DNA of 53,907 nucleotides, taken from contig CAZGXK010000001.1 of the NCBI GenBank assembly GCA_964529775.1, positions 1 through 53,907 on the forward strand, in the 5' to 3' direction. Each line of letters begins with the position of its first letter. Position 1 is the stretch's first letter. Below the pieces are notes generated by a model. That model searched no databases. It was not told where the DNA came from and worked only from the letters and a program-made list of their open reading frames with translations. Positions 18,820 through 52,930 of the stretch are shown here, one piece after another. The DNA is from an uncultured Eubacteriales bacterium. GTDB lineage: Bacteria; Bacillota; Clostridia; Oscillospirales; Acutalibacteraceae. Made by a program: the position numbers and the translations under genes.

Positions 18820-20250
18820 TTGGTCTTTTCCAGTATGGTCTTCGTCTTCCTTTTCTTCGCTGCGGTCCTCCTCGCGCACAGTCTGTGCCGGACCGTCCGG
18901 GCAAAGAATATCTGCCTGCTGGTCGCCTCGCTGATTTTTTACAGCTGGTCCTCTCTCCGGTTCACGCTGATTTTGCTCTTCGAGGTGGCGGTGTGCTGGA
19001 TTTTCGCACGGCTCATCGACCGCTCCCGGGGCAAGGGCAGGCGCGGCCTGCTGATCGCCTGCGTGACGATTCAGCTGCTGGTCTTAGGCGTTTTCAAATA
19101 CCTCGGCTTTTTCCTCGACAATTTCCGCCTGCTCACCGGGCATCCGCAGGTGGTGCCGGATATCGTGCTTCCGCTGGGCATCTCCTTTTACACCTTCCAG
19201 CTCATCTCGTATGTGGCGGACGTCTATCGCGGGGAAATCCCCGCGCAGCGCAAATTCTGGATGCTCCTGCTGTACGCCAGCCTCTTTCACCAGTGCGTGG
19301 CGGGGCCGATTGTGCGGTACAGCGATCTCTACGAGCAGCTGGAGGACCGGCGCATCTCGACCGGCATGACCTCCAAGGGAATCAGCCGCTTCACCGTTGG
19401 GCTCGCCAAGAAAGCGATTCTCGCCAATTCCTGCGCCCTTGTCGCCGACGCCTTCTTCAAGGGGGACGCGGCGGCGCTGGCGGCCCAACCCGCGGCGGGG
19501 CTGTGGATCTCGGGGCTTGCGTACGCCCTGCAAATTTACCTCGATTTTTCCGCCTATTCGGATATGGCGGTGGGCATGGGGCTGATGTGCGGGTTCTTTT
19601 ACCCCGAAAATTTCCGCTACCCGTATCTCGCCGGTTCGGTGACCGATTTCTGGAGGCGCTGGCATATCACCCTGAGCAGCTTCTTCCGGGATTACGTCTA
19701 CATCCCCCTCGGCGGCAACCGTCGCGGGCTGCCCAGGCAGATTCTCAATCTTCTGGTGGTGTGGCTGCTCACCGGCTTCTGGCACGGCGCCTCGTGGAAC
19801 TACGTCCTGTGGGGGCTCTACTTCTTCGTGTTCCTGGCGGCGGAAAAGCTGATCGGCGAGCAGCGGCTCTCGAAAATTCCGCGGGTCATTCGGCACGCCG
19901 GGGTGATTGTCATCCTCTTCTTCTGCTGGGTTCTCTTCCGCTTTGAGGATCTCCCCTCGCTGTGGACGGCGCTAAAAGGGCTGTTCTGCTTGAACGGCAA
20001 CCCCGCGGGGAACGCGGTGGCGTCGCTCACGCTCCGCTCCAACTGGGCGCTGCTGGCCGTCTCGGTGTTCGCCTGCACGCCGGTGGTGAAAAATATCGCC
20101 GAGAGACTGAGAGAGTCCTGCCGCCAAAGCACGCTGGCCACCAAGGTGTACGCCGTCGCCGACGTGATTCACCCGGTGCTGTGGCTGGTGCTCAGCGCGA
20201 TGGTGCTCACCGGCAACAGCTACAACCCCTTTATTTACTGGACTTTTTAG
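18820..20250 (+). CDS. MBOAT family O-acyltransferase (AlgI/DltB/PatA-like)
   Basis: 476 aa polytopic. FWRRWHITLSSFFRDYVYIPLGGNRRG and the conserved His in TGFWHGASWNY. Start could be TTG 18820 or ATG 18835. Confidence 0.88.
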   Translation: MVFSSMVFVFLFFAAVLLAHSLCRTVRAKNICLLVASLIFYSWSSLRFTLILLFEVAVCWIFARLIDRSRGKGRRGLLIACVTIQLLVLGVFKYLGFFLDNFRLLTGHPQVVPDIVLPLGISFYTFQLISYVADVYRGEIPAQRKFWMLLLYASLFHQCVAGPIVRYSDLYEQLEDRRISTGMTSKGISRFTVGLAKKAILANSCALVADAFFKGDAAALAAQPAAGLWISGLAYALQIYLDFSAYSDMAVGMGLMCGFFYPENFRYPYLAGSVTDFWRRWHITLSSFFRDYVYIPLGGNRRGLPRQILNLLVVWLLTGFWHGASWNYVLWGLYFFVFLAAEKLIGEQRLSKIPRVIRHAGVIVILFFCWVLFRFEDLPSLWTALKGLFCLNGNPAGNAVASLTLRSNWALLAVSVFACTPVVKNIAERLRESCRQSTLATKVYAVADVIHPVLWLVLSAMVLTGNSYNPFIYWTF

Positions 20251-20268
20251 CGGGAGAGGGCGTCGCAC

Positions 20269-21645
20269 ATGAAAACCGAGACGAAAAAAGAATACGCCGT
20301 CCCGTTCAAGGCCATCCGCAGGACCAAGAATATTGTCTTTTTCACGGTTCTCGGGGTGTTCGCGGTCATCGGGCTGATGTGGTTTTGGCGCCCCACCGTC
20401 TCGGAGACGGAAAAGCGGGAGCTCACCCCCTTTCCGGAACTGACCTTCTCCGGACTGATGGACGGCAGCTTCGCCGACGGGGTGAGCAAGTGGTATTCCG
20501 ATACCTATCCGCTGCGGGAATGGTTTATCGGCGGGGCGCACGCGCTGCAGTCCCTCTACGGCGACCGCTCCGAGCAGATCATCATCCACGACCCCCCGCC
20601 GGACGACGTCCCGCCGGCGCCTTCCGCCGAACCGACCCAGCCCGCCTCCCGCCCGTCATCGGTGCCGGGCGCCGCGACATCCACCACTCCGTCGTCCTCC
20701 GCCACGGAGGCGCCCACCACGACCACCTCCCGCGACGGCACCGTCACCACTCCGGGAGAGGTGCTCGGCTCCATCTATGTGACGGGGGACAGCGGCTACA
20801 GCCTCTACTACTTCAGCCAAGGCGTTGTGGACCAGTACGCGGATTTTGTCAACCGATCGCACCGGGCGCTCGGCGAGGGCGTGAATGTGTACTCGATGCC
20901 CATCCCGCTGAGCTCCGGGGTGATGCTGGACCCGTCGCTTCTGGAGGCGGTGGGCGCGAGCGACCAGAAAGCGGCGATCGCCTATATCGACAGCCGGATG
21001 GAGCCGGGCGTGCACGGGCTGGATTTGTTCGACACGCTGAAAGAGCACAACGCGGAGTACCTCTATTTCCGTACCGACCACCATTGGACGGCTCTCGGCG
21101 CGTATTACGCCTACACCGTTTTCTGCCGCGAAAAAGGGGTGACGCCTCACGGGCTCGAGCGGTTTGAACAGAAGAGCTACCCCGGTTTCCTCGGCACCTT
21201 CTACGCCGAATCGCTCTCTCAGGCGATGAAGGCGAATCCCGACACCCTTACGGCGTACATCCCCATGGGGACCAACGAGATGACCTTCACCGATAAAAGC
21301 GGCAACCAGATCCCGTGGTCCATCGTCATGGACGCGACGGATTACAGCAGCTCCGGCAAGTACAACTGTTTCGCCGGCTCCGACCAGCCGTACGCCGTCG
21401 CGCACAACCCGAAAATCACCGACGGAAGCGCCTGCGTCGTCGTCAAGGATTCCTTCGGCAACGCGTTTGTGCCGTTCCTGGTCGACCACTACGAGTATGT
21501 GTACTGGATTGATTTCCGCTATTACAAGGGTACCCTGACCGATCTCGTCAAGGAGAAAAACATCGGCGACGTGATCTACTGCCTGAATTTGTACAACACC
21601 ACCACGTCCAGCGCCATCGGTCTGCTGAACGGCCTGGTACCCTGA
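20269..21645 (+). CDS. DHHW family protein (AlgX/AlgJ/PatB-like partner of MBOAT)
   Basis: 458 aa with an N-terminal TM helix and a P/S/T-rich linker. Literal FRTDHHWT motif. Always paired with an MBOAT in Firmicutes. Confidence 0.82.
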   Translation: MKTETKKEYAVPFKAIRRTKNIVFFTVLGVFAVIGLMWFWRPTVSETEKRELTPFPELTFSGLMDGSFADGVSKWYSDTYPLREWFIGGAHALQSLYGDRSEQIIIHDPPPDDVPPAPSAEPTQPASRPSSVPGAATSTTPSSSATEAPTTTTSRDGTVTTPGEVLGSIYVTGDSGYSLYYFSQGVVDQYADFVNRSHRALGEGVNVYSMPIPLSSGVMLDPSLLEAVGASDQKAAIAYIDSRMEPGVHGLDLFDTLKEHNAEYLYFRTDHHWTALGAYYAYTVFCREKGVTPHGLERFEQKSYPGFLGTFYAESLSQAMKANPDTLTAYIPMGTNEMTFTDKSGNQIPWSIVMDATDYSSSGKYNCFAGSDQPYAVAHNPKITDGSACVVVKDSFGNAFVPFLVDHYEYVYWIDFRYYKGTLTDLVKEKNIGDVIYCLNLYNTTTSSAIGLLNGLVP

Positions 21646-41892: not shown

Positions 41893-41921
41893 TTGACAAT
41901 GCGGGAAAAGTGCGGTATACT
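41893..41921 (+). promoter_or_regulatory. promoter P1 (TTGACA-17 nt-TATACT)
   Basis: TTGACA at 41893-41898 and TATACT at 41916-41921. Reads rightwards, towards and antisense to the XRE gene. Confidence 0.65.
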
Positions 41922-41927
41922 TAATAA

Positions 41928-41941
41928 CGAACAAATGTTCT
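41928..41941. promoter_or_regulatory. LexA (Cheo/SOS) box 1
   Basis: CGAACAAATGTTCT matches the Gram-positive LexA consensus CGAACRNRYGTTYC at 13 of 14 positions. It begins 7 nt after the -10 of P1. Confidence 0.7.
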
Positions 41942-41963
41942 GTTAAGGGAGGCGAGCGGCGGC

Positions 41964-42152
41964 TTGGAGAAGGCAAAAGAGAGCGCGGTGCCGGACGGCG
42001 GAGAAGCGGACGGGTCGCGCCTGTCGGTGCTTGCGCGCGCCGTGGAAGACGCCGCGGGCGGATGTCCGGACGTCGCCGCGCGGATCATCGAGGCTCTGGT
42101 GAGGGATATCGGTCAATCGGCATCGAGCAGGGATTTGAGGCGGGAGAGGTAA
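41964..42152 (+). CDS. small hypothetical protein (62 aa), candidate SOS-induced factor
   Basis: TTG start 12 nt after AAGGGAGG. GC3-rich codons. Helical-looking sequence SRLSVLARAVEDAAGGCPDVAARIIEALVRDIG. Overlaps the 3' end of the convergent XRE gene by 40 nt. Coding status is uncertain. Confidence 0.35.
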   Translation: MEKAKESAVPDGGEADGSRLSVLARAVEDAAGGCPDVAARIIEALVRDIGQSASSRDLRRER

Positions 42153-42454
42153 TCGTCGAGCTGCTCCTGCGTGAGATCCTCCCCCTTTTTGAGAATTCCG
42201 TGTGAGCGGAACGCCTCGCTCAGCAGCGAGAGCGCGGTCGGCTCGTCCTCGCCGAGCAGCCACGCCGGCGTGACGCAGAGCGCGCGGGCGATCTTCTCCA
42301 GACGGTCCGCCGGTATCTTCGAGACGGTGCCTGCCTCATAGCGCTGAAGCACCGATTTGGCATAGCCTGTCCGCGCGGAGAGCTCGCCGAATGTCAGCCC
42401 CGCGGCCCGGCGCGCTTCTTTGAGCCGGGCGGGAATCGGCCGACTGTTCTCCAT
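42113..42454 (-). CDS. XRE/cI-type helix-turn-helix repressor (no S24 peptidase domain)
   Basis: Start at ATG 42454, 113 aa. IPARLKEARRAAGLTFGELSARTGYAKSVLQRYEAGTVSKIPADRLEKIARALCVTPAWLLG is a classical HTH_XRE, followed by a 45-aa tail only. Confidence 0.88.
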   Translation of the reverse strand: MENSRPIPARLKEARRAAGLTFGELSARTGYAKSVLQRYEAGTVSKIPADRLEKIARALCVTPAWLLGEDEPTALSLLSEAFRSHGILKKGEDLTQEQLDDYLSRLKSLLDAD

Positions 42455-42493
42455 GCTATTCACCGCCCCCGTGCGAAAATTCCCGTCCCTTTG

Positions 42494-42522
42494 ATTATAG
42501 CAAATGATGCCCGCTTTTTCAA
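42494..42522 (-). promoter_or_regulatory. promoter of the XRE repressor gene (TTGAAA-17 nt-TATAAT on the minus strand)
   Basis: The reverse complement reads TTGAAA (42522-42517), a 17-nt spacer, and TATAAT (42499-42494). It lies about 40 nt upstream of the XRE start and is divergent from P2. Confidence 0.7.
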
Positions 42523-42550
42523 CCGAAACGCAAAATTTTCCGAAAAGGGC

Positions 42551-42579
42551 TTGACAAAAAACGAAAAATGTGGTATAAT
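42551..42579 (+). promoter_or_regulatory. promoter P2 (TTGACA-17 nt-TATAAT with TG extension)
   Basis: TTGACA at 42551-42556, a spacer ending in TGTGG, and TATAAT at 42574-42579. The sequence is clearly paralogous to P1. Confidence 0.8.
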
Positions 42580-42585
42580 AAGGGA

Positions 42586-42599
42586 CGAACAAACGTTCT
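42586..42599. promoter_or_regulatory. LexA (Cheo/SOS) box 2
   Basis: CGAACAAACGTTCT differs from box 1 at a single position. It begins 7 nt after the -10 of P2, the same geometry as at P1. Confidence 0.72.
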
Positions 42600-43170
42600 T
42601 TATAGAGGACGGTCTCCCTCCGCTTCGGGCGGTCGCCGAAGGATATCCGGGGGCCCGGAAGGCGGACAAGAGGGGTTCGTCTGTTTCATGCGTCCCGAAA
42701 ACGGGACGGCATGGGAGAGAGAGGCACGAAAACCCAAGGGGGAAGTCCGCACGGATGCCGCTGATGAAGAGGAGCGCGGATTGAGTGTTCCGAAAATGGG
42801 ACAGCAGCGACGGGCCGGGCGGCGATGAGCCGAGGGCGAGGGGTATTCGCGCGGGCTTTGCCTTTCCCCGTGCTTTGAGGAATCCGAGCGGCCGAAGCGC
42901 GCGGGGCAGGGGGGAGAAGAGCGCTCCGTGCCCGATGCGGGCGGACTTTGCCCGGAAGGCCGCTGTTTGCATGGGAGTTTCGCGGATAACGGGACTCCCT
43001 TTGGGTGAGAACGGGGAAAGGCGGCGCTGCACACGGAGTGGCCGCTCCATACCCCAGGCGTTTGCGCCCCCCTGAACCCGCGGCGCGAAAGGCGCGGGCA
43101 GGGGGAAAAAAGAGGATATTTCAGAGAGACCATCGAGAATATTTTATCGGCGGTGTCCTCACACCACCGA
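42600..43170 (+). ncRNA. candidate large structured non-coding RNA or long structured leader (about 570 nt)
   Basis: No credible ORF in any frame; only R/G/P-rich shadow ORFs without an RBS. Many local hairpins: GTCCCG-AAAA-CGGGAC at 42692-42707, GTTCC-GAAAAT-GGGAC at 42787-42802, GGGAGT...ACTCCC at 42973-42999, and a long interrupted stem CCCCCTG..CCCGCG...CGCGGG.CAGGGGG at about 43060-43106. Class not established. Confidence 0.4.
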
Positions 43171-43183
43171 AAGAAAGGGGAGC

Positions 43184-43483
43184 ATGAGAATGATCTGCAA
43201 AGGCTGCGGGGAACGGTTGGAAGCCTGGGAGCTGGAGACGGTGAACGAATGGGTCTCGTACCGGGGAAGGGAGGTGCTGGTGCCGGTGGACACCCTCTGC
43301 CCGGTGTGCGGCGGCTCGGAGTTCGCACTGGAGGGGGAGTGCGCGGAGTGCGGGCGGATGACGGACGAAACGGCGCTGAGGGACGGGCTGTGCCCCGCCT
43401 GCGCGAGGGAGGCCGAGGAGATGTGGCGGGAGATGACCCCTGCGCAGCGAAAGTATCTGCTGGGGCTGGACGAAGGGGAATAG
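43184..43483 (+). CDS. small double zinc-ribbon protein (4 CxxC pairs)
   Basis: 99 aa after an AAAGGGGAG RBS. CKGC...CPVC and CAEC...CPAC. GC3-rich codons like the neighbouring genes. Confidence 0.65.
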   Translation: MRMICKGCGERLEAWELETVNEWVSYRGREVLVPVDTLCPVCGGSEFALEGECAECGRMTDETALRDGLCPACAREAEEMWREMTPAQRKYLLGLDEGE

Positions 43484-43954
43484 CGGACCGCTTTCGTGAT
43501 GCCGGTGCCGTTTCCCGTTTCCGATGACATCCGCCACGCGGGCGCGGCCGGGGCGCTTGAAGAATCTGCCGCTCCTGTCCTCGCCGGGGCCGTGGCGCGG
43601 ATGCTTCAGATCGGCGAATCGGCGCGGTGTTCCCGCAGGATTTTCCGGTTTGGGACGCGTGTGCCGCGGAGGGCGAGACAACCGCCGAGGACCACGGAGG
43701 CCCTCGCCATAAGGAAAAGGCACCTATTCTGACCCGTCTGTGGGGGCAGATACACGCCTGTGTGTGCTGCCTTCGGGGCAAAAGCGACGGACGGCCGCTC
43801 CCGGGGCGGGAGAAACCACAGACGCTGGACGGCCCGCTATTCGGCTTTGAGGGCACCGCCGGGCCGCTTCAAAAAGCGGCGGCCGTTCCGATGCCCGAAA
43901 ACGCGCGCCCGTGCCCCAGGGGAAGAGCACAGGGGTGAAAGGGGGAAAAGCACA

Positions 43955-44308
43955 TTGACGGACAAGCAGAAAAAATTTGCGGATGAATTTATCCGCCGGG
44001 GGGACGCGCGCGAGGCGTGGGTCGCCGCCGGGTTCAGCGGGCGCTCGGCGGAGACGTACATCCCCCGTGTGCTGGGCCGCGAGGATGTGGCGCAGTACAT
44101 CGAGAGCCGGCTCGGGGGGAGCAAGGACCCCGGCATCGCGGGCAGGACGGAGATTCTGCGGTATCTGACCCGCCTGTTGCGCGGCAGGGATACGGGGGAG
44201 CGGGAGCGCCTTCGGGCGGCGGAACTGCTCGGCAAGGGGTGCGGACTGTTCTCGGACAAGACGAGAGAGGAGAGTTCGGGAGTGACGATTGTGGATGATG
44301 TGCGATGA
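43955..44308 (+). CDS. phage terminase small subunit
   Basis: TTG start at 43955 after AAAGGGGGAAAAG, 117 aa. LTDKQKKFADEFIRRGDAREAWVAAGFSGRSAETYIPRVLGREDVAQYIESRL matches the Terminase_2-type HTH N-terminus. The stop overlaps the terL start (ATGA). Confidence 0.8.
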   Translation: MTDKQKKFADEFIRRGDAREAWVAAGFSGRSAETYIPRVLGREDVAQYIESRLGGSKDPGIAGRTEILRYLTRLLRGRDTGERERLRAAELLGKGCGLFSDKTREESSGVTIVDDVR

Positions 44309-45615
44309 ACGGGCGGACGGTGAGTCTGAGAGAGACGGTAGGGTCGGGCTACGGGGCGTTTTGGCGGTGGCGCGGGCGGTACCGCGCGGTGAAGGGCGGC
44401 CGCGCCTCCAAGAAGAGCTGCACGACGGCGCTGTGGCTGATTGTGAACATCATGCGGATGCGGGGGGCGAACGCGCTGGTGGTGCGCAGGACCTACCGCA
44501 GCCTGCGGGACAGCTGCTATGCCCAGCTGCGCTGGGCGATTCACCGCTTGCGCGCGGACGCGTGGTGGAGCGCCAGGGAGAACCCTCTGGAACTCGTCTA
44601 CAGGCCGACGGGGCAGCGCATCGCTTTCCGGGGCCTGGACGACCCCCTGAAGGTCTCCTCCATCGCGGTGGAGACGGGCAGCTTGTGCTGGCTGTGGGTG
44701 GAGGAGGCGTACGAGATCGCGAGCGAGAGCGATTTCGACACGCTGGACGAGGCGATACGCGGAGAGGTCGCGCCGCCGCTCTTCAAGCAGACGACGCTGA
44801 CTTTTAACCCGTGGAGCGGGCGGCACTGGCTGAAGGGCCGGTTTTTCGACCGGAAAAGCCCGGACGTGCTGGCGATGACGACCGATTACCGCTGCAACGA
44901 GTGGCTGGACGACGCCGACCGCGCGATGTTCCGGCGTATGGAGCGCGAAAACCCGCGTCGGTACCGGGTGGCCGGGCTCGGCGAATGGGGGATGGCGGAG
45001 GGGCTTGTCTACGACGACTGGGAGGTGGCGCCGTTTGACGTGCGGGAACTGCTCACGGGCGAGGGCGGAGAGGAAATCCGCTGCGTGTACGGGCTGGATT
45101 ACGGGTACAGCAACGACCCGACGGCGTTTATCGCGGCGGCGGCGGACGGGCGGCGCAGGAGGCTGTATATTTTCGACGAGTTCGTGGGCGCGCGCATGGT
45201 GAACAGCGAGATTGCGCGGATGATTGTGCGTAAGGGCTATCAGAAGGAGCGCATCCGGGCGGACAGCGCGGAGCCGAAGAGCAACGAGGAACTGAGGCGG
45301 CTGGGCATTTCGCGGATCACCCCCGCGCCGAAGGGGCGGGACAGCGTGCTCTACGGCATCTCGGCGCTGAGGGAATACCACATGGTGGTGCATCCCCGGT
45401 GCCGCAACACCATAGCGGAGCTTGCGAGCTACGCCTGGGAGACGCAGAGGGACGGCACCGGCGTCAACCGGCCGGCGGACCGCGACAATCACCTGATGGA
45501 CGCGCTGCGCTACGCGATGGCCGACGCGAAAAGAGGATGCCGGGCGGAGCAGTGGAGCGCGGGGCTCTTCGAGAGCGGGATCACCGCGCGCGACCTGCTT
45601 GGGAGCCGGACGTGA
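44305..45615 (+). CDS. phage terminase large subunit (PBSX-like)
   Basis: 436 aa. Walker-A-like VKGGRASKKS, Walker-B-like LCWLWVEEA, and a C-terminal nuclease region (YGLDYGYSNDPTAF, DRDNHLMDALRYA). Confidence 0.88.
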   Translation: MNGRTVSLRETVGSGYGAFWRWRGRYRAVKGGRASKKSCTTALWLIVNIMRMRGANALVVRRTYRSLRDSCYAQLRWAIHRLRADAWWSARENPLELVYRPTGQRIAFRGLDDPLKVSSIAVETGSLCWLWVEEAYEIASESDFDTLDEAIRGEVAPPLFKQTTLTFNPWSGRHWLKGRFFDRKSPDVLAMTTDYRCNEWLDDADRAMFRRMERENPRRYRVAGLGEWGMAEGLVYDDWEVAPFDVRELLTGEGGEEIRCVYGLDYGYSNDPTAFIAAAADGRRRRLYIFDEFVGARMVNSEIARMIVRKGYQKERIRADSAEPKSNEELRRLGISRITPAPKGRDSVLYGISALREYHMVVHPRCRNTIAELASYAWETQRDGTGVNRPADRDNHLMDALRYAMADAKRGCRAEQWSAGLFESGITARDLLGSRT

Positions 45616-45636
45616 CAAAAGAAGGAGGAAGGCCGA

Positions 45637-45816
45637 ATGAAGGTGGCGATACTGGCGGCGATGTTTTTGCTGACGGGCGGCGGCGCGCTGCTGGCGCGGA
45701 GAGCGCGCGGGCGGCGGAAAAGGGCGGTTCCCCCGCCGGGGGAGCCGAGCCGCGAAGAGCGGTATATGATGAATTTCCTGCGGTATGACGGCACGCCGCA
45801 GGAGGAGGTGAGATGA
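45637..45816 (+). CDS. small membrane protein (59 aa), hypothetical
   Basis: Not in the track because it is under 60 aa. GAAGGAGGAAGG RBS, then ATG 45637: MKVAILAAMFLLTGGGALLARRARGRRKR... The stop at 45814-45816 overlaps the portal ATG at 45813. Confidence 0.5.
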   Translation: MKVAILAAMFLLTGGGALLARRARGRRKRAVPPPGEPSREERYMMNFLRYDGTPQEEVR

Positions 45817-47402
45817 TGGACGGCAGGGCGAGGGAGATTTTCCGGGAGTACGACGAGGGGGTGAGGTACAAGGCGTCGCTCGGGGAGCTGGGGCTTGTGG
45901 AGCAGGGGAAGCGAAACGAGCGGTTTTACCTGGGCGATCAGTGGCACGGGGCGCAGTGCGGCGGAGAGCGTCCGCTGGTGCGGTACAACGTGATCAAGCG
46001 GATCGGCGACTACAAGACGGCGATGGTGAGCGGCGCGCCGATGCGGGTGAGCTATTACGCCGAGGGGGAACCCGACGGGGACGGGCGGGGCGGGACGCCG
46101 TCTTCCGGCTCGGGAGAACGGAATGTGGCGGAGGCGCTGGGGGATTTATCCGCCTATTTTGACGCGAGTGCGCAGAGACTGGGGCTTGACGAGATGCGCG
46201 AGAGGGTGCTGCGCGACGCGTTTATCCGGGGCACCGCGTTTCTCTACACCTACTGGGATTCGGACGTGCCCACCGGGTTGTATGCCGACGCCGGGCGAAC
46301 CGTGCCGGTGCGCGGGGACATCGCCTGCGAGACGCTGGACATCGAGCAGGTGACGATGGGCGATCCCGGGCAGGAGGACATCCAAAAGCAGCCGTACCTG
46401 CTGATCTCTCAGCGCCTTCCCCTCGCCCGGGTGAGAGAGCGGGCGGAAGAATACGGGCTGCCCCCGGCGCGGAGGGACGCTATCCGCCCGGACGCGCCGT
46501 CTTCCCCCGCGGGGGACGGCGGGACGGCGACCGTGGTCACCCGTCTTTGGAAAACCGGGCGCGGGGACGGCGTGCGGGTGATGGCCGCGCAGGCGACCAG
46601 GGAGGTAATGCTGAGGGAGCCGTGGAATCTCGGGATTCGCCGCTACCCCTTAAGCGTGTTTCGCTGGGAGTGCGGACAGGGTCTCGCCTACGGGGAGAGC
46701 GAGGTGACGCATCTCATCCCGAACCAGATCGCGATCAACCGTCTGCTCACCGCGAACGTGTGGGCGGGCATGATGACGGGGGCACCGATCACCGTGGTGA
46801 ACGGGGACGTGGTGCAGGGGCCGGTGACCAACGACCCCGGTCAGGTGCTGAAAGTGTTCGGCTCGGCGGAGGAGGTCGGCGGCGCCGTCCGCTATGTCTC
46901 CCCTCCGGACACCTCCTCGGGGCTGCTGCGCACCGTCGCCTCTCTGATTGGGGACACCCTCTCGAACGCGGGGGCGAACGAGGCGGCGCTCGGGGATGTG
47001 AAGGCGGAAAACGCCGCCGCGATTCTCGCGCTTCAGGAGGCGGCGTCGCTGCCGCTGCAATCGGTACAGCGCCGTTTCACCCGTTTTATGCGGGACGTCG
47101 CCCTCACCTGGGCGGAGTTCTGGGTGATGACCTACGGCGCGAGGCCCCTGAGGGTCGGCGGCCGGTACCGGCCGTTTGACGGCAGGCTCTACCGCGATTT
47201 GGTGCTGCGCGCGAGAGTGGAGGTGACGGGCTCGCCCCTGTGGGCGCGCTCTCAGATGCAGGCGGCGTTGGATAAGCTGCTGGACGGCGGCTGGATTGGC
47301 GGGGCGGACTATATCGCCCACCTGCCGGGGTGCGCTCTGCCGGGGCAGCGGGAGCTGTTGCGGACGCTGAGGGAGAAAGAAGGCAAGGAGGTCAGGGCAT
47401 GA
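45813..47402 (+). CDS. phage portal protein
   Basis: 529 aa directly after terL. N-terminal NERFYLGDQW-type segment, plus size and position typical of SPP1-like portals. Confidence 0.78.
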   Translation: MMDGRAREIFREYDEGVRYKASLGELGLVEQGKRNERFYLGDQWHGAQCGGERPLVRYNVIKRIGDYKTAMVSGAPMRVSYYAEGEPDGDGRGGTPSSGSGERNVAEALGDLSAYFDASAQRLGLDEMRERVLRDAFIRGTAFLYTYWDSDVPTGLYADAGRTVPVRGDIACETLDIEQVTMGDPGQEDIQKQPYLLISQRLPLARVRERAEEYGLPPARRDAIRPDAPSSPAGDGGTATVVTRLWKTGRGDGVRVMAAQATREVMLREPWNLGIRRYPLSVFRWECGQGLAYGESEVTHLIPNQIAINRLLTANVWAGMMTGAPITVVNGDVVQGPVTNDPGQVLKVFGSAEEVGGAVRYVSPPDTSSGLLRTVASLIGDTLSNAGANEAALGDVKAENAAAILALQEAASLPLQSVQRRFTRFMRDVALTWAEFWVMTYGARPLRVGGRYRPFDGRLYRDLVLRARVEVTGSPLWARSQMQAALDKLLDGGWIGGADYIAHLPGCALPGQRELLRTLREKEGKEVRA

Positions 47403-48115
47403 AGGCGAAGGACGAGACGCCGAAAGAGGCTTTGCGGGCGGATCCGCCCCGGGAGGCCGGAGAGGCCGGGCGGGAGGAAAGCGGAGAGGAGGAATGGTAT
47501 CTGCCGGTGTACAACGGGGAGGTTCGCCCGGTGCGCCGGACCGAGCGGGAGGAGATCACCGCTCTCCTGCAGCTCGGGATGAAGCAGAGGGATTTTCTGC
47601 CGGAGTACGAACTGCTCCGGGAAATGGCGGAGGACGAGGGGGTCACGGTGCGCGAGTGGGTGCGGGACCGCGCCGACCGGCACGAGAAGGCGCTGCTGAG
47701 CGACGCCGTGGAGAAGTACGGAGAGCGGGACGGCACGGCGTTTTACGAGATGCACAGGCAGAGCCGTCTCGCCCGCTGCCGTGAGCAGGAGGAGAGGGAG
47801 AAGGCGCGCGAGATGAGCGAAAAACAGCGGGAGGCATCCCGTTGGCAGAGCGAGTTTGCCGAGCTCAAAGAGGCGGTGCCGCGCTTTGAGACGCCGGAAG
47901 ATGTGCCTTTGCAGGTGAAGAATCTCGCGCTCGCCCGCGGTATTCCGCTGCTGGACGCGTACCACCGATTCGCGTTTGACGAGCGGCGCCGGGCGATGGA
48001 GGAGAAGTTTGAGGAGGAGATGGCGAGGGCGCTTTCGACCGGACCGCTTTCCGCCACCGAACGGGGCGGACCGGACAGCGCCAGAGAGGCTTTTTTGCGG
48101 GGATTATCCCTGTGA
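47399..48115 (+). CDS. phage scaffolding protein (acidic, helical)
   Basis: ATG at 47399 overlaps the portal stop. 238 aa, very rich in E/R/A and coiled-coil-like. Located between portal and capsid. Confidence 0.6.
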   Translation: MKAKDETPKEALRADPPREAGEAGREESGEEEWYLPVYNGEVRPVRRTEREEITALLQLGMKQRDFLPEYELLREMAEDEGVTVREWVRDRADRHEKALLSDAVEKYGERDGTAFYEMHRQSRLARCREQEEREKAREMSEKQREASRWQSEFAELKEAVPRFETPEDVPLQVKNLALARGIPLLDAYHRFAFDERRRAMEEKFEEEMARALSTGPLSATERGGPDSAREAFLRGLSL

Positions 48116-48198
48116 GAGAAGGCTTTGAAACTGCCGCGCGCCCGAGGGCGCGGTCACGCGGGCCGGGGGCGCGGCCGACATATGAAGGAGGAGAGCTT

Positions 48199-49107
48199 AT
48201 GGCTATCAACACGTTATCGTTTCGCGAGGAGATGTCGGGAGAACTGGAGCGCGCGGTACAGCGCGGGGCGGTCGTCGGGTTTTTCGAGGACAACCCGCTG
48301 CGCGCGAAATTTGTGGGCGCGAAGACGGTGCTCATCCCGGAGATGGGGCTGAGCGGACTGGGGGATTACGACCGCGACAACGGCTTTGTGCGGGGGGCGA
48401 TCACCGTCACGAGCGAGCCGTACGAGCTTAAGCAGGACCGCGCACGCACGTTCCAGCTGGACCGGGAGGACAACGACGAGACGGGCATCGCCTCGCTCGC
48501 CGGTCAGGTGCTGGGAGAGTTTGTGCGCACCAAGGTGGTGCCGGAGGTGGACGCCTACTGCCTCTCGAAAATCGGTGGGTACGCCGTCTCGGAGGAGCAG
48601 ACGGTGACCGGAGCCCCGCAGACCGAGGCGTATGCGATGTTCCAGACCGCTCTGGGACAGGCGCAGGAGAACGTGGGGTTTGACGAGGAGATCGTCTGCT
48701 TTGTGAGCGGAGATTTCCTGCGGGCTCTGCAGAGTTCCCCGGAGATCGCGAGGCAAATCGGCATCTCGGATTTTCGCAAGGGGGACGTGAACCTGCAGGT
48801 GAAATCGCTCGACGGGGTGGCGCTGCTGCCGGTGCCCGCCTCGCGCATGAAGACGTCGTTCACCTTTGATTCCGGCGCGGACGGGGACGAGGGGGGATTC
48901 CACCCCGACCCGAGCGCGAAATCCATCGGATTTTTGCTCTGTCCGAAGCGCGCGGCGTCGCTTGTGAAGAAGAGCGAGACGGTGAGGGTGTTTACCCCGG
49001 AGCAGAACATCAAGGCGGACGCCTGGAAATTCGATTACCGGCTGTACTACGACGTGTTTCTGAAGAACAGTCTGAAGCCGGGCATCCGCGCCTATGTGAC
49101 CGAGTGA
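48199..49107 (+). CDS. phage major capsid protein
   Basis: ATG at 48199 after a GAAGGAGGAG RBS, 302 aa. The size, position after the scaffold and overall sequence character are capsid-like. The fold was not verified. Confidence 0.7.
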   Translation: MAINTLSFREEMSGELERAVQRGAVVGFFEDNPLRAKFVGAKTVLIPEMGLSGLGDYDRDNGFVRGAITVTSEPYELKQDRARTFQLDREDNDETGIASLAGQVLGEFVRTKVVPEVDAYCLSKIGGYAVSEEQTVTGAPQTEAYAMFQTALGQAQENVGFDEEIVCFVSGDFLRALQSSPEIARQIGISDFRKGDVNLQVKSLDGVALLPVPASRMKTSFTFDSGADGDEGGFHPDPSAKSIGFLLCPKRAASLVKKSETVRVFTPEQNIKADAWKFDYRLYYDVFLKNSLKPGIRAYVTE

Positions 49108-49136
49108 AAAAACCGAAAACGGGGAGGAGAGACGTG

Positions 49137-49910
49137 ATGGAGATACTCGAGAGCGCGCTTGTCTTTCGCGACAACCACACCCTGCGCGGAAAAGCGCCCG
49201 CCGGGATTGTGCTGCACCACGCGGCGGGGACCGGCAGCGTGGAGGACGTGCACCGCTGGCACCTGCAAAACGGCTGGGCGGGCATCGGCTACCATTTTTA
49301 CGTGCGGCGGGACGGCAAGGTCTACCGCGGGCGGCCGGAAGAGTGGACGGGCGCACACGCCGTCGGCGCGAACGACCAGCTCGGCATCTGCGCCGAGGGC
49401 AATTTTGAGCGGGAGCGGATGAAACCGGCGCAAAAGCAGGCGATCGCCGAACTTGTCCGGGCGCTGAGGCGGAAATACGGGGCGCTCGCGTGTCACCGGC
49501 ACAGCGAGTACGGCAGCACCGCCTGCCCGGGGAGATATTTTCCGTTTGAGGAAATTGTGCGCGAGGGCGCGGGGGACGGCGCGGCGGCGAAGGACGCGAA
49601 TCTTGTGAAACGCTTTCAGAGCGCCTGCCTCGCGGACGGCATCCCCCTGCCGGTCTACGGCGCGGACGGCGTCTGGGAACGCGAGACCGAGGGCGCCGCG
49701 AGGCACGCGGTGGCGAGCGGGAGCCGGGGAGAGAGAGTGCGGCTGGCGCAGCAGGTCTGCATGGAGGCGAAAATCGGTCTGCCGTGCGGCGCGGACGGGA
49801 TTTTCGGCGCACACACGGCGGCCGCCGTGCGCGAGTTCCAAAAGCAAAAGGGACTGGTCATCGACGGGATTGCGGGGATAAAGACGTGGAAAGCGATGCT
49901 GGGGGTGTGA
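49137..49910 (+). CDS. N-acetylmuramoyl-L-alanine amidase (PGRP/Amidase_2) with C-terminal peptidoglycan-binding domain; endolysin
   Basis: IVLHHAAG, GWAGIGYHFYVRRDG, GAHAVGANDQ and STACPG motifs. C-terminus GADGIFGAHTAAAVREFQKQKGLVIDGIAGIKTW is PG_binding_1-like. ATG at 49137 follows GGAGGAG. Confidence 0.88.
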   Translation: MEILESALVFRDNHTLRGKAPAGIVLHHAAGTGSVEDVHRWHLQNGWAGIGYHFYVRRDGKVYRGRPEEWTGAHAVGANDQLGICAEGNFERERMKPAQKQAIAELVRALRRKYGALACHRHSEYGSTACPGRYFPFEEIVREGAGDGAAAKDANLVKRFQSACLADGIPLPVYGADGVWERETEGAARHAVASGSRGERVRLAQQVCMEAKIGLPCGADGIFGAHTAAAVREFQKQKGLVIDGIAGIKTWKAMLGV

Positions 49911-50191
49911 TGATGGCGGCGACACATGAGGCGCTGACACTCTCCCGGGAGAACGAGAGGCGGCTGACGGCGGTGGAGGAGCAGATGCAGACGCTGCAGG
50001 AGCTGTCGCGCACGGCCGCGGTGACCGAGAGCCTTGTGGCAAATTTGCGGGAGGACGTCCGCTCTATCCGGCGGGCGGTGGACGCGCTGACGGAAAAACC
50101 GGCCAGGCGCGCGGACGCGGTGGCGGCCGCCGTCTTGGGGGCGATCGCTTCCGGGGCGGTGTGCACCGCGCTGGGGATGCTGGTGCGGTGA
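49910..50191 (+). CDS. XhlA-like protein (coiled coil plus C-terminal TM)
   Basis: 93 aa. The ATG overlaps the amidase stop. Heptad-like N-terminus (LTAVEEQMQTLQEL...) and C-terminal helix AVAAAVLGAIASGAVCTALGMLV. This is the architecture of PBSX XhlA. Confidence 0.55.
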   Translation: MMAATHEALTLSRENERRLTAVEEQMQTLQELSRTAAVTESLVANLREDVRSIRRAVDALTEKPARRADAVAAAVLGAIASGAVCTALGMLVR

Positions 50192-50208
50192 CGGGAAAAG
50201 GGGGAGAA

Positions 50209-50427
50209 ATGATGCGCAAAGAGATCGGGGCGTGGCTGAGGGCGGCGGGAATCCGCGCGATCAAAACGGTGGCGCAGACGGCGGCGGCGAGCGTCGGCAC
50301 GGCGGTGCTGCTGGAATCGGTCGACTGGCTTGCGGTGGTTTCGGCGTCGCTGCTCGCGGGGATTCTGAGCCTGCTGACGAGCCTTGCGGGGCTGCCGGAA
50401 TTGGACGGCGGGGAGGCCAAACGGTGA
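50209..50427 (+). CDS. phage holin (r1t-type, two TM helices)
   Basis: 72 aa from ATG 50209 (AAGGGGGAG RBS). IRAIKTVAQTAAASVGTAVLLESVDWLAVVSASLLAGILSLLTSLAGLPE resembles r1t-family holins. Confidence 0.7.
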   Translation: MMRKEIGAWLRAAGIRAIKTVAQTAAASVGTAVLLESVDWLAVVSASLLAGILSLLTSLAGLPELDGGEAKR

Positions 50428-50780
50428 AGACGGGGGAAGAGCTGTGGAACCGGGCGCTGCGGCTGCTCCACTACGCGGATATCCGGAGGATGGACGGCGG
50501 GGAGGAGACGGCGCTGGCGATCATCAATCAGGTGGTGAGCGACCTGTGGTACGGCACCCGGGAGGGAGATTTTTCCCCTCTCTCGGAGCTGTCCGACCCG
50601 CTGCCGCTGACGGGAAGGCTGGTTGAGGACGTGATGCCGTACGGCGTGGCGATGCTGCTCTCGCAGAATCTGGGGGACGCGGACAGCCAGGCGCTGTTTG
50701 CCTCCCTCTACAATCAAAAACGCGCGCGGATGCGGGGCGGGGAAAGCCGTCTGGACGTGATGCCGCGCGGCGGGATGTGA
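50424..50780 (+). CDS. hypothetical protein (118 aa)
   Basis: GTG at 50424 overlaps the holin stop. GC3-rich codons. No family recognised. Confidence 0.5.
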   Translation: MKTGEELWNRALRLLHYADIRRMDGGEETALAIINQVVSDLWYGTREGDFSPLSELSDPLPLTGRLVEDVMPYGVAMLLSQNLGDADSQALFASLYNQKRARMRGGESRLDVMPRGGM

Positions 50781-50791
50781 GGAGGGAGATC

Positions 50792-52771
50792 ATGCGGTTT
50801 CCGGCGATGAAACGGGGGTTGCGGGCCGGCACCGCCACTCCGGCGCTCACCGGCGGGGCGCGCAAGGGGGTGCCGCGCGGGGAGATCGGCAGCGGTCAGC
50901 TCGCCGAGGCGCAAAACGTCTGCTATTGCGGGGAGACGCTGGTGAGCCGCCCGTGCTTTCGCGCGCGGGGGACGGCGGACGGGTGCGGGGGAGAGCTTCT
51001 CTCGGTGCGCGGCGGCATCTCTTTCGAGGGAGAGGCGGCATCGGTGATGCTCTTTCGCACCGGCGTCGGGGTGACGCTGCGGGTTATCGCCGGGGACGGG
51101 CGGGCGCTCGGGGCGTACACGCTCGCGGGGTGCGACGGCGGCGCGGCGGTGCCGGGGGTGGAGGAGCCGTTTTTGTTCTTCACCGGGCGGCGCGTCTATG
51201 TGCCGGGGGATGGCGAGCTTTTGCCGATGCCGGGGGAAAGACTCACCGTCCCGACGGTGCTCGTGAACGCGAGGCCCTACGGCGAGCGGGAGCAGGGCGT
51301 ACCGGCGGACGGGCATCTCCCCCCGCGGGGGGAGATGGCGCAGGCGCTCAACCGCTACTGCCCGCGCTACCGCTGCCTCTTCACGACCACGGGGGACGGG
51401 GAAAACCTCTTTGAGGTGATGGTGCTGCCGACTCCCGTCCCGCAGAGCGAGGAGGTGAAGCTGACCTACTTCGCCGAGGACGGGGAGTACACGGCGGTGT
51501 TCCCGGCGGGGAGCGAGGGGCCCGTGATTCTGCAGAGGGGCGAAAAGACGCTGGGGGGCGAAATCCGTCTGGTGCGGGAAAAGGGTTATGCGGTCACCCA
51601 TTTTTCGCTGCCGGCGGGAGGGGAAAACAACCTGTGCATCGAGGCGGGCTATGAGGCGGAGGACGCAGATCCCCCGGGCTTCGGGATGTGGCTGCCCGGT
51701 CAGAACGGCGGGGCGAGGCTGTTCCTCGGCGGCTACCGGGGGCAGCCCGCCGCCGTGCGGTGGAGCGAGACGGACGATCCCGGGTATTTTGCCGAGAGCG
51801 GCGTGCGCGCCGTGGGGCAGGCGGGGGAACCCGTCACCGCTTTCGGCAGGCAATCGGATATGCTGGCGGTTTTCAAGAGAGGCTCCACCCACTGTCTGAC
51901 CTACGCCGACCGCGAGACCGCCGGTTCCGGGGAGCGGGACAGGCAGGCGCGGGGCATTGCGCTCTCCACCCGCACCGTCTCCCCGTCGGTCGGGTGCGAC
52001 TGCCCGGACACGGTCGCGCTGTGCGAGGGGAAGCTGGTCTGGATGACCTCCGACGCCCGGGTGCACGCGCTGGTGACGGCCAGCGCGCACAGCAACCGCA
52101 ACGTGGTGGACGTGGGGGAAAACATCGCCCCCGCGATTCTCGGGCGCAGCGGCGTTTCGGAGAGGAGGGCGGCGAGCGCGCGGTCCGCTCCGGAAGGGTA
52201 CGCGCTGGCGGTGGCGGGGCGAATCTATCTGTTGAAGACCTCCGATCTCGCCTTTCGGAATCTCTCGTACTACTACCGGCAGAAAACGCTGGAAGAACAC
52301 CTGACGTGGGTGGAATGGACGCTGCCGGACGGGTGCGAAAACGCTTTTCTGCTGCCCGGCAGCGAGGTGACTCTCGGCCTCATCCGGGAGGGGACGCTCG
52401 CCGTCTACGCGGCGGGGGAACCTCTTTTCGGGGAGGGAGGCGAGCTGCGCGACGAGATCCCCGGCGAAGCGGGGGAGACCAGCCGGGTGGTCGCCTGTGT
52501 GGAGACGCGCGAGATGCCCCTCGGTTCCCGCTCGCAGACGGCGCGCGTGACGTCGGTCGCGCTGGAGGGGGAGTGCGAAGGGGCGACGGCGACCCCGATA
52601 ACCGACGGGCGGGAGCGGGAGCCGCAGACCTTCGCGCTGCGGGGGAGGCACACGGTGGTCCTCCCGGAAATGCCTCTGTGCCACCGCGCGGGCGTGCGGC
52701 TTCAGAGCGGGATGCCGCTGCGGTTTTTGGGGGCGGAAATTCTGTTCTCGCCGCGCGCGCACCTCGGATGA
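50792..52771 (+). CDS. hypothetical large protein (659 aa), possibly a virion or tail-proximal component
   Basis: ATG at 50792 after GAGGAGGGA (alternative GTG 50777). Long uninterrupted GC3-rich ORF that looks beta-rich. No recognisable motifs. Last gene before tRNA-Lys. Confidence 0.6.
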   Translation: MRFPAMKRGLRAGTATPALTGGARKGVPRGEIGSGQLAEAQNVCYCGETLVSRPCFRARGTADGCGGELLSVRGGISFEGEAASVMLFRTGVGVTLRVIAGDGRALGAYTLAGCDGGAAVPGVEEPFLFFTGRRVYVPGDGELLPMPGERLTVPTVLVNARPYGEREQGVPADGHLPPRGEMAQALNRYCPRYRCLFTTTGDGENLFEVMVLPTPVPQSEEVKLTYFAEDGEYTAVFPAGSEGPVILQRGEKTLGGEIRLVREKGYAVTHFSLPAGGENNLCIEAGYEAEDADPPGFGMWLPGQNGGARLFLGGYRGQPAAVRWSETDDPGYFAESGVRAVGQAGEPVTAFGRQSDMLAVFKRGSTHCLTYADRETAGSGERDRQARGIALSTRTVSPSVGCDCPDTVALCEGKLVWMTSDARVHALVTASAHSNRNVVDVGENIAPAILGRSGVSERRAASARSAPEGYALAVAGRIYLLKTSDLAFRNLSYYYRQKTLEEHLTWVEWTLPDGCENAFLLPGSEVTLGLIREGTLAVYAAGEPLFGEGGELRDEIPGEAGETSRVVACVETREMPLGSRSQTARVTSVALEGECEGATATPITDGREREPQTFALRGRHTVVLPEMPLCHRAGVRLQSGMPLRFLGAEILFSPRAHLG

Positions 52772-52854: not shown

Positions 52855-52930
52855 GATCCATTAGCTCAGTCGGCAGAGCACCTGACTTTTAATCAGGGTG
52901 TCCGGGGTTCGAATCCCCGATGGATCACCA
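52855..52930 (+). tRNA. tRNA-Lys (anticodon TTT)
   Basis: 76 nt folded by hand. Acceptor GATCCAT/ATGGATC, D arm GCTC-AGTCGGCA-GAGC, anticodon arm CCTGA-CTTTTAA-TCAGG, T arm CGGGG-TTCGAAT-CCCCG and encoded CCA. Confidence 0.93.

Follow-up and report, generated by a model that had tools for sequence, protein, structure and literature searches.

What kind of element is a compact chromosomal cluster of phage head and lysis genes that carries neither an integrase nor replication genes? We asked this of an island of ~10.9 kb (positions 41893 to 52771) in the chromosome of an uncultured Eubacteriales bacterium of the family Acutalibacteraceae, analysed within a stretch of 53,907 nt (GenBank assembly GCA_964529775.1, contig CAZGXK010000001.1, forward strand) that we call the window. 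An earlier description made from the letters alone (the sequence-only reading) had presented the island as SOS-wired and without recognisable tail genes, had likened it to the Bacillus subtilis element PBSX with the whole tail block missing, and had proposed a domesticated particle producer, a capsid-forming satellite borrowing tails from a helper phage, or a recently truncated prophage. On balance, the evidence leans toward the first of these: the island appears to be a vertically inherited, LexA-controlled, podovirus-derived producer of particles like gene transfer agents (GTAs), held at a fixed chromosomal site and present here in a reduced, fibre-less form. By "GTA-like" we mean a viriform or a defective prophage kept by selection.

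Gene content and integrity of the island

All island open reading frames (ORFs) were scanned against Pfam, PHROGs, and NCBIfam, and the last two ORFs of the island (orf118 and orf659) were assigned from predicted structures. The genes, with the tRNA that follows them, are as follows.

42113-42454, minus strand: XRE-family helix-turn-helix (HTH) regulator, 113 aa, without an S24 peptidase domain (HTH_3/HTH_31, E ~3e-11)
43184-43483, plus strand: 99-aa ORF with four CxxC motifs, a double zinc ribbon (cluster c26)
43955-44308, plus strand: terS, 117 aa from TTG 43955 (Pfam Terminase_2, E 2.4e-13)
44305-45615, plus strand: terL of the PBSX family (Terminase_3 and Terminase_3C full length; NCBIfam 130.6 bits against a cutoff of 105)
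45637-45816, plus strand: small membrane ORF, 59 aa, its position between terL and portal conserved family-wide
45813-47402, plus strand: P22-like portal (Pfam P22_portal 28.1 bits, gathering score 26.1; phrog_156, E 3.7e-22)
47399-48115, plus strand: scaffold-like acidic protein (weak PHROG support; relatives have a homologue between portal and capsid)
48199-49107, plus strand: major capsid protein (phrog_422, E 3.4e-77)
49137-49910, plus strand: endolysin, an N-acetylmuramoyl-L-alanine amidase with a peptidoglycan-binding domain (Amidase_2 and PG_binding_1)
49910-50191, plus strand: weakly XhlA-like ORF, 93 aa, coiled coil plus C-terminal transmembrane segment (XhlA/hemolysin PHROG, E 1.5e-4; no Pfam match)
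50209-50427, plus strand: r1t-type holin (E 1.1e-10)
50424-50780, plus strand: orf118, putative head-to-tail adaptor (predicted structure and gene context)
50792-52771, plus strand: orf659, predicted tail nozzle (predicted structure, a beta-propeller of the T7 gp12/P22 gp10 type)
52855-52930: tRNA-Lys

Family searches and an ORF check found every gene of the earlier description in place and intact. Start and stop codons overlap at the six junctions it had pointed to (44305, 45813, 47399, 49910, 50424, and 50777), and GC at third codon positions (GC3) is 0.76 to 0.89 in island and flanking genes alike, in keeping with its remark on codon usage; overall GC and GC skew are somewhat raised in the island relative to its surroundings. 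The absence of integrase and replication genes was likewise borne out, as no island ORF matched an integrase, excisionase, replication, or long-tail family in the three databases, the contractile-tail families (sheath, tube, and baseplate) included. No att-like direct repeats bounding the island were found, and no receptor-binding protein, tailspike, fibre, or plug/needle protein was recognised in the island or elsewhere in the window. Measured from the operon promoter (P2) through the nozzle gene, the island spans ~10.2 kb.

Both the ATPase and the nuclease domains of TerL are full length. The start of terS is most probably TTG 43955 rather than an earlier codon (MTDKQKKF... after a good ribosome-binding site), and a long ORF started at GTG 43760 is probably an artefact. 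The capsid family, phrog_422, is of the HK97 type and is found in long-tailed phages of Firmicutes too; no NCBIfam model matched the capsid protein at E 0.01. Holin, amidase, and the 93-aa protein, weakly assigned as an XhlA-like lysis accessory protein, make up a lysis set inside the main operon. The zinc-ribbon ORF is the conserved opening gene of the window's subtype, and a regulatory role for its product is our guess. A small membrane-like ORF (55 to 95 aa, clusters c22/c7) lies between terL and portal in 47 loci, often overlapping the portal start and matching no family.

Two orphan ORFs are predicted to encode a short tail

The earlier description had proposed structure searches for its two orphan ORFs, and these gave them candidate identities. 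The AlphaFold2 model of orf659, built from a 72-sequence alignment, had a pLDDT of 91.9 and a pTM of 0.90, and its best 28 Foldseek matches in the PDB were all podovirus nozzles (E 3e-16 to 1.6e-8), among them those of HRP29, Pa223, E1004, T7 gp12, PhiM1, SU10, P22 gp10, GP4, and VP1. We confidently predict from this model that orf659 is a podovirus nozzle with the T7 gp12/P22 gp10 fold. Its relatives numbered 2 in a word-index search and 1255 cluster representatives in an exhaustive profile search, and the copy in one relative weakly matches phrog_3287, a "virion structural protein."

The AlphaFold2 model of orf118 is a four-helix protein (pLDDT 86), and each of its nine best PDB matches is to Sf6 gp7 or to the portal-tail complex of cyanophage A4 (prob 0.9 to 0.98, TM ~0.55, E 0.1 to 0.5); BFVD yielded mostly unnamed viral proteins and, with weak scores, some "head to tail adaptor" entries. 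These best matches point to an adaptor of the P22 gp4/Sf6 gp7 type. Gene context supports the assignment, because orf118 homologues always stand immediately before the nozzle gene, often immediately after the portal gene, and because one relative (L045, 5019-7514) encodes adaptor and nozzle as a single 831-aa ORF, which could be a true fusion or an assembly frameshift. Sequence-profile searches of the PDB with the orf659 and orf118 alignments returned nothing, and fold comparison alone succeeded. The models share only ~10% sequence identity with the proteins whose folds they match (P22 gp4/gp10, Sf6 gp7, and T7 gp11/gp12).

With a predicted adaptor and nozzle, the island would encode a head plus a minimal tail, so it would be neither tail-less nor a PBSX without its tail. 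The statement that tail genes are not recognisable stands at the level of sequence families and fails at that of predicted structure. The PBSX comparison survives in terL and the lysis cassette, while the particle type is predicted to be short tailed, like P22 and T7. Of the possibilities first listed, the best fit is a domesticated producer whose stubby tail the two orphan ORFs would supply, given the nozzle matches and the Sf6 gp7 adaptor match. Two proteins that are "hypothetical" in hundreds of genomes can now be given the candidate names adaptor and nozzle.

Putative LexA control of the operon

Two predicted promoter modules lie at the left end of the island.

41893-41941, plus strand: promoter P1 (TTGACA-17-TATACT) with LexA box 1 CGAACAAATGTTC, reading toward xre in antisense
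42551-42599, plus strand: promoter P2 (12/12 consensus, extended -10) with LexA box 2 CGAACAAACGTTC, the operon promoter

The LexA consensus of Firmicutes is well established. The motif CGAACN4GTTC has just two matches in the 54 kb (41928 and 42586), each 6 nt past a near-consensus -10 box. That count is not significant by itself (0.75 matches expected; two reached in 16% of shuffles); the boxes are convincing because they are placed right after promoters and because the design is conserved in seven relatives. In these relatives (L005, L007, L008, L009, L011, L012, and L208) the zinc-ribbon gene stands behind a TTGACA-17-TATxxT promoter and one to three LexA boxes. Perfect CGAACAAACGTTCG boxes number three in L008, and one of the three GAACN4GTTC matches of L208 is CGAACAAACGTTCG. 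Most of the seven loci have no element-encoded repressor. The sequence thus favours the earlier view that the island is SOS-wired, with LexA predicted to bind the boxes and to place the operon under the host's SOS response.

In the window, the P1 and P2 modules (50 nt) are 74% identical duplicates that bracket xre, and the xre promoter (42522-42494) stands back to back with P2. The HTH of this regulator resembles that of the HTH plus Peptidase_S24 repressors of other family subtypes. P1 may act as an SOS-driven antisense lock on the XRE repressor. Transcription from P1 would also cross a doubtful 62-aa ORF (41964-42152).

P2 and the first gene are separated by an untranslated leader of 584 nt (42600-43183; predicted to fold far more stably than shuffles, z = -3.9), and the zinc-ribbon gene and terS by a 470-nt spacer (43484-43954) that is not unusually structured (z = +0.4). 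In relatives, leaders span 100 to 250 nt and the zinc-ribbon/terS gap ~20 nt. No gene remnant was detected in the 470-nt spacer, and blastn of both non-coding stretches against all relatives gave no match. Rfam searches of the whole window, and of 41.8 to 44.0 kb with E up to 1, returned two tRNAs only, so that the leader matches no RNA family.

A palindrome, GTGTCGCA-N4-TGCGACAC, lies ~25 nt upstream of the -35 box of the LexA promoter in L008 (4804), L011 (4778), and L012 (3138). It is terminator-like in L012 and absent from the window, and its sequence conservation suggests a second operator.

A shared chromosomal site

At least five species carry the window's subtype at one orthologous locus, and no integrase accompanies it. 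The order there is mem610/MBOAT/DHHW, the element, and DUF4363/YetF (L208, L007, L012, and L008), where mem610 is a membrane protein gene whose window homologue encodes 576 aa, and MBOAT and DHHW are alginate-O-acetylation-like. L208, the closest to the window by capsid identity among the loci compared (77%), has mem610 (minus strand), MBOAT, and DHHW on its left and DUF4363, YetF, and rpoB on its right. Its element opens with a three-LexA-box promoter, the zinc-ribbon ORF, terS, terL, the small ORF, portal, scaffold, and capsid, and continues with two fibre-like genes (258 and 634 aa), amidase, the XhlA-like ORF, holin, adaptor, nozzle, and a further gene, c9. MBOAT/DHHW also directly flank the element in L012 and, as DHHW, in L007, both with DUF4363/YetF on the right; in L008 the left neighbour is mem610 and the right one DUF4363.

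Comparison of the locus across relatives, another check proposed earlier, showed that the window retains the mem610 junction. Its upstream flank comprises hrcA-grpE-dnaK-dnaJ and genes for a ComEA-like HHH protein, a PHP protein, a TSCPD protein, and the mem610 homologue, and its downstream flank tRNA-Lys and then glyQS. The window's MBOAT and DHHW genes are at 18820-21639, 21 kb upstream of the island, which indicates that the neighbourhood was rearranged around a conserved site. The tRNA-Lys gene was considered as an integration site and rejected, as the island lies upstream of the tRNA 5' end and no tRNA repeat is present at the left end. A full-length, tailed, integrase-bearing prophage at this locus in close relatives, the finding that the sequence-only reading had named as contradicting it, was not encountered.

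Element and flanking genes have diverged to similar degrees. Protein identity between the window and L008 is 60% for mem610, 64% for terL, and 72% for capsid; between L007 and L012 it is 51% for DHHW, 72% for YetF, 73% for terL, and 71% for capsid. Such similarity would be expected of long residence at one site and not of repeated site-specific insertion, for which the element has no integrase. A sister subtype adjoins ScmC-like, PqqD, SpoU, and SufCD genes in 12 species. Across these, capsid, terL, and portal rise and fall in pairwise identity together with the SufC/SufD-like proteins (Spearman 0.74 to 0.95), capsid being conserved at 85% and SufD at 86%.

L127, from a second strain of the same organism, matches the window at 99.4% of nucleotides over 3 kb, and its structure is unchanged as far as the tRNA. 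The two differ at 18 nucleotides, and adaptor and nozzle carry 10 synonymous changes against 6 nonsynonymous codons, small numbers that suggest purifying selection. Substitution counts were confined to this strain pair, as synonymous sites are saturated between species (50 to 75% protein identity).

Relation to known particle-producing elements

The GTA of Faecalibacterium prausnitzii (FpGTA) has terS, terL, portal, scaffold, capsid, adaptor (best PDB match 7sp4, as for orf118), and nozzle (8eap) in operon I and fibres, holin, and endolysin in operon II, 125 kb away; its particles measure 40 nm, have no visible tail, and contain 8.4 to 8.9 kb of host DNA (PMC12946183). Like FpGTA, the island is a chromosomal cluster of the Oscillospirales with a head set, a podovirus adaptor (7sp4) and nozzle, both predicted here, a holin, and an endolysin, without integrase or replication genes and with a main operon of ~10 kb. 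The capsid is annotated as N4-gp56 family in FpGTA, whereas that of the island belongs to phrog_422, and terL is annotated as "Terminase-like family" in FpGTA, in contrast to the PBSX family/Terminase_3 of the island. The host families differ as well. FpGTA keeps fibre and lysis genes in its second operon, while the island has its lysis genes within a single operon and no fibre gene that we could find. LexA/SOS control is not reported for FpGTA (PMC12946183) but is predicted for the island. Set against the published annotations of FpGTA, capsid family and operon layout place the island outside the FpGTA lineage.

PBSX shares with the island SOS inducibility (predicted for the island), an xre-type regulator, a PBSX-family terL, the lack of self-propagation, and an XhlA-like/holin/amidase lysis cassette, the island's XhlA assignment being weak. 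The tail of PBSX is long and contractile and is the means by which it kills, whereas the island has the predicted P22/T7-type adaptor and nozzle; unlike in PBSX, the putative LexA boxes of the island are on the operon promoter itself. Compared with P22/T7-like podoviruses, the island has no recognised tailspike or fibre, needle or plug, or ejection/internal core proteins, and its host is Gram-positive. Among isolated phages, detectable sequence similarity to orf659 is confined to the Bacillus megaterium podophages Pascal and Page (Pagevirus), in which a virion protein whose gene is flanked by those for tailspike and tail fibre matches the central part of the nozzle (25% identity over 36% of the protein; E 3e-10). 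These are virulent phages of 40 kb with a full tail apparatus, unlike the island.

Proposed function and points against it

GTAs and viriforms have been characterised as chromosomal phage-derived structural clusters without replication, excision, or integration of their own (PMC9662315), and the ORF scans, the lack of att repeats, and the host genes on both sides show the island to be free of such functions. Further hallmarks are host regulation, vertical inheritance with purifying selection, release by lysis with DNA delivery, and the packaging of host DNA in pieces too small for the whole cluster and without preference for its own genes (PMC9662315). Host-controlled expression is indicated at the level of sequence by the promoter and the predicted LexA boxes.

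Read from the genes, particle formation, the packaged DNA, and its delivery might be pictured as follows. In an undamaged cell, LexA would sit on the boxes overlapping the P1 and P2 start sites, with XRE as a second lock. DNA damage would lead to self-cleavage of LexA, and P2 would then drive the single coupled operon, while antisense transcription from P1 into xre would simultaneously lower XRE. The zinc-ribbon protein would be a possible regulator. TerS, TerL, portal, scaffold, and capsid protein would build and fill heads, adaptor and nozzle would close the portal as a stubby tail, and the holin, the XhlA-like protein, and the amidase would lyse the cell. Because excision and replication functions are lacking, packaging would be expected to occur in situ from the chromosome, either of random host DNA or of headfuls from near terS.

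Several observations weigh against a GTA-like producer. The first concern the window copy itself. Six relatives (L208, L008, L007, L005, L012, and L066) have a fibre-like gene, of 800 to 913 aa or split, with weak tail-fibre PHROG matches; homologues of this gene and of c9 occur nowhere in the window, a second operon included, and window particles may therefore be unable to adsorb. As the right flank is tRNA-Lys/glyQS instead of DUF4363/YetF and so rearranged relative to relatives, c9 may have been lost at the breakpoint. Packaging specificity is a second matter. TerS retains the N-terminal part of Terminase_2, where DNA binding usually resides, and this argues, at the sequence level, for pac-specific over random packaging.

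The remaining points concern the family. In IMG/VR contigs of 20 to 36 kb, this structural module (terS to nozzle to c9) follows replication genes (ParB, Sak annealase, replication initiator, SSB, RusA, and late activator), which shows that the family includes real temperate phages. Some metagenome-assembled genomes (MAGs) hold two element copies, and gene order differs among subtypes. Because of the real phages, the double copies, and the variable gene order, the family as a whole is not purely domesticated. The mem610-type protein has no Pfam family and, with 381 metagenome relatives, is a widespread host gene; the element was absent beside it in all of the best 80 of these 381 loci (L128-L207). 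Taken as empty sites these 80 were rejected as uninformative, the MBOAT/DHHW/DUF4363/YetF neighbourhood being absent there as well. Given their similar divergence, either the element is gained and lost often or its conserved locus is restricted to one clade. On the supporting side, Table S1 of the FpGTA report lists GTA-type packaging with a 10.4-kb peak for "UMGS856 sp900546265," an entry not discussed in its text (PMC12946183). One family member (L023) is in a MAG named UMGS856; a name match and a correlation are what tie that packaging to it, as a first hint that the family makes DNA-filled particles.

Alternative explanations

A first alternative, which we judge unlikely, is that the island is the decaying remnant of a small temperate podovirus or GTA-like element that lost its receptor-binding genes and right end, makes at most non-infective heads or serves as an SOS-induced lysis module, and has intact ORFs because the losses are recent. 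The fibre-like genes and c9 of its closest same-locus relatives, its exchanged right flank, and its 584 and 470 nt of non-coding sequence where relatives have 20 to 250 nt all favour such a history, and the XRE gene and duplicated promoter that the window gained relative to its kin suggest local remodelling. However, the 12 ORFs that remain all have their full length and coupled junctions, holin stop and adaptor start overlap cleanly, and no gene fragments are present; the unchanged structure and mostly synonymous differences of the second strain speak against decay too. Nor is the fibre-less set unique to the window, because L014/L085 and L023 likewise have the repressor-to-nozzle gene set only (in L023: repressor, terL, portal, scaffold, capsid, adaptor, and nozzle), and one of these comes, going by the MAG name, from a species reported to show GTA-type packaging. 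The earlier argument from intactness and coupling against simple decay is supported. Of its suggestion of a recently truncated prophage, the losses and the rearranged flank agree, but a full-length prophage was not found at the locus.

A capsid-forming satellite of a helper podovirus is a less probable reading still, and we consider it improbable. Such an element would make its own head, adaptor, and nozzle, and borrow fibres and perhaps replication and mobilisation functions. Podovirus tails such as those of P22 and T7 assemble onto the head protein by protein. Borrowed fibres are mechanically plausible given this stepwise assembly, what is missing could come from the phages that combine the same structural module with replication genes (ParB, Sak, replication initiator, SSB, and RusA), and some subtypes have not even a nozzle. 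Phage-inducible chromosomal islands of the capsid-forming type (cf-PICIs) carry an integrase and regulatory and replication modules, excise and replicate, take long tails from a helper, and have no lysis genes (bioRxiv 10.1101/2022.09.08.507074). The island is like them in being compact and in having its own terminase, portal, capsid, and head-tail joining protein without a full tail. In contrast, the cf-PICI integrase, att sites, and replication module have no counterpart in it; no integrase, excisionase, primase/replication gene, or att repeats, the hallmarks of PICIs and cf-PICIs, were seen here or in relatives. One locus in at least five species, co-divergence with the host, predicted induction via host LexA and not a helper-sensing repressor, and a lysis cassette of its own, usually missing from known satellites, leave the satellite proposal weak.

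An autonomous minimal temperate phage that integrates and replicates by host functions alone can be set aside as highly improbable: a whole copy of the ~10.2-kb island could fit one head, given the 10.4-kb DNA size listed for UMGS856, but the island has no replication, integration, or excision function, no end repeats, and no receptor-binding protein, and it occupies the same locus in divergent species.

The wider family

Capsid relatives number 2734 at 90% clustering, and a one-genome-per-species scan confirmed the family in at least 405 stretches, most of them in MAGs that bear the label Acutalibacteraceae, Ruminococcaceae, or Clostridia. Clustering of the ORFs from ~120 loci gave the following counts for a linked core (capsid to nozzle) and for two further recurring genes.

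capsid: 104 loci
terL: 96 loci
portal: 93 loci
scaffold: 78 loci
adaptor: 75 loci
nozzle: 61 loci
divergent HTH plus Peptidase_S24 repressor: 28 loci
c9, the ~330-aa post-nozzle gene: 26 loci

Many chromosomal members span just 6 to 13 kb, with housekeeping genes on either side. Among 126 flank-protein clusters from 59 loci, no recurring integrase family (at least two clusters) was found, a search that single non-recurrent integrases would escape. The sister subtype (L018, L019, L022, L035, L039, L042, L043, L050, L056, L059, L068, and L070; ~5 to 11.5 kb in each) consists of an S24 repressor, a terS-like gene, terL, portal, a short scaffold, capsid, and adaptor, with the nozzle not nearby; it may be a head-only domesticated element or have its tail genes elsewhere.

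No description of this particle-gene family was found in the literature searched. A broader proposal, which we advance tentatively and regard as open to considerable doubt, is that these elements form a large LexA-wired, podovirus-type GTA lineage, inherited vertically across Acutalibacteraceae and related Oscillospirales (hundreds of species) and separate from FpGTA by its capsid and terminase families. Its members would range from head-plus-adaptor-only to fibre- or toxin-tipped forms, and even fibre-less copies would package ~10-kb pieces of the chromosome after DNA damage and move them between cells. GTA-type packaging has recently been reported as the commonest capsid route for chromosomal DNA in gut Clostridia, with the genes known only in Faecalibacterium; the island family is a concrete candidate gene set for it in a second, much wider group of gut anaerobes. 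A LexA switch that can be read from sequence predicts that DNA-damaging drugs and inflammation may trigger particle release and gene flow. Real phages, compact nozzle-bearing forms, and adaptor-only forms may be seen as a graded series from short-tailed phage to host-kept device. Elements of this kind have been known since the FpGTA report, and the interest of the present one lies mainly in the family's size, the readable SOS switch, and these graded reductions.

Two groups of loci have further genes downstream. At the c9 position of L008 (17621-18974; = L088) lies a gene for a 339-aa protein with a C-terminal toxin deaminase domain of the BURPS668_1122 family, followed by a small ORF that could encode immunity; the protein may be a tail-attached toxin or a neighbouring polymorphic toxin. 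In L021, L025, L030, L037, L047, and L055, M23 peptidase and GDSL/SGNH esterase-like genes stand downstream of the nozzle, and their products could be tail-associated wall-degrading or receptor-modifying enzymes.

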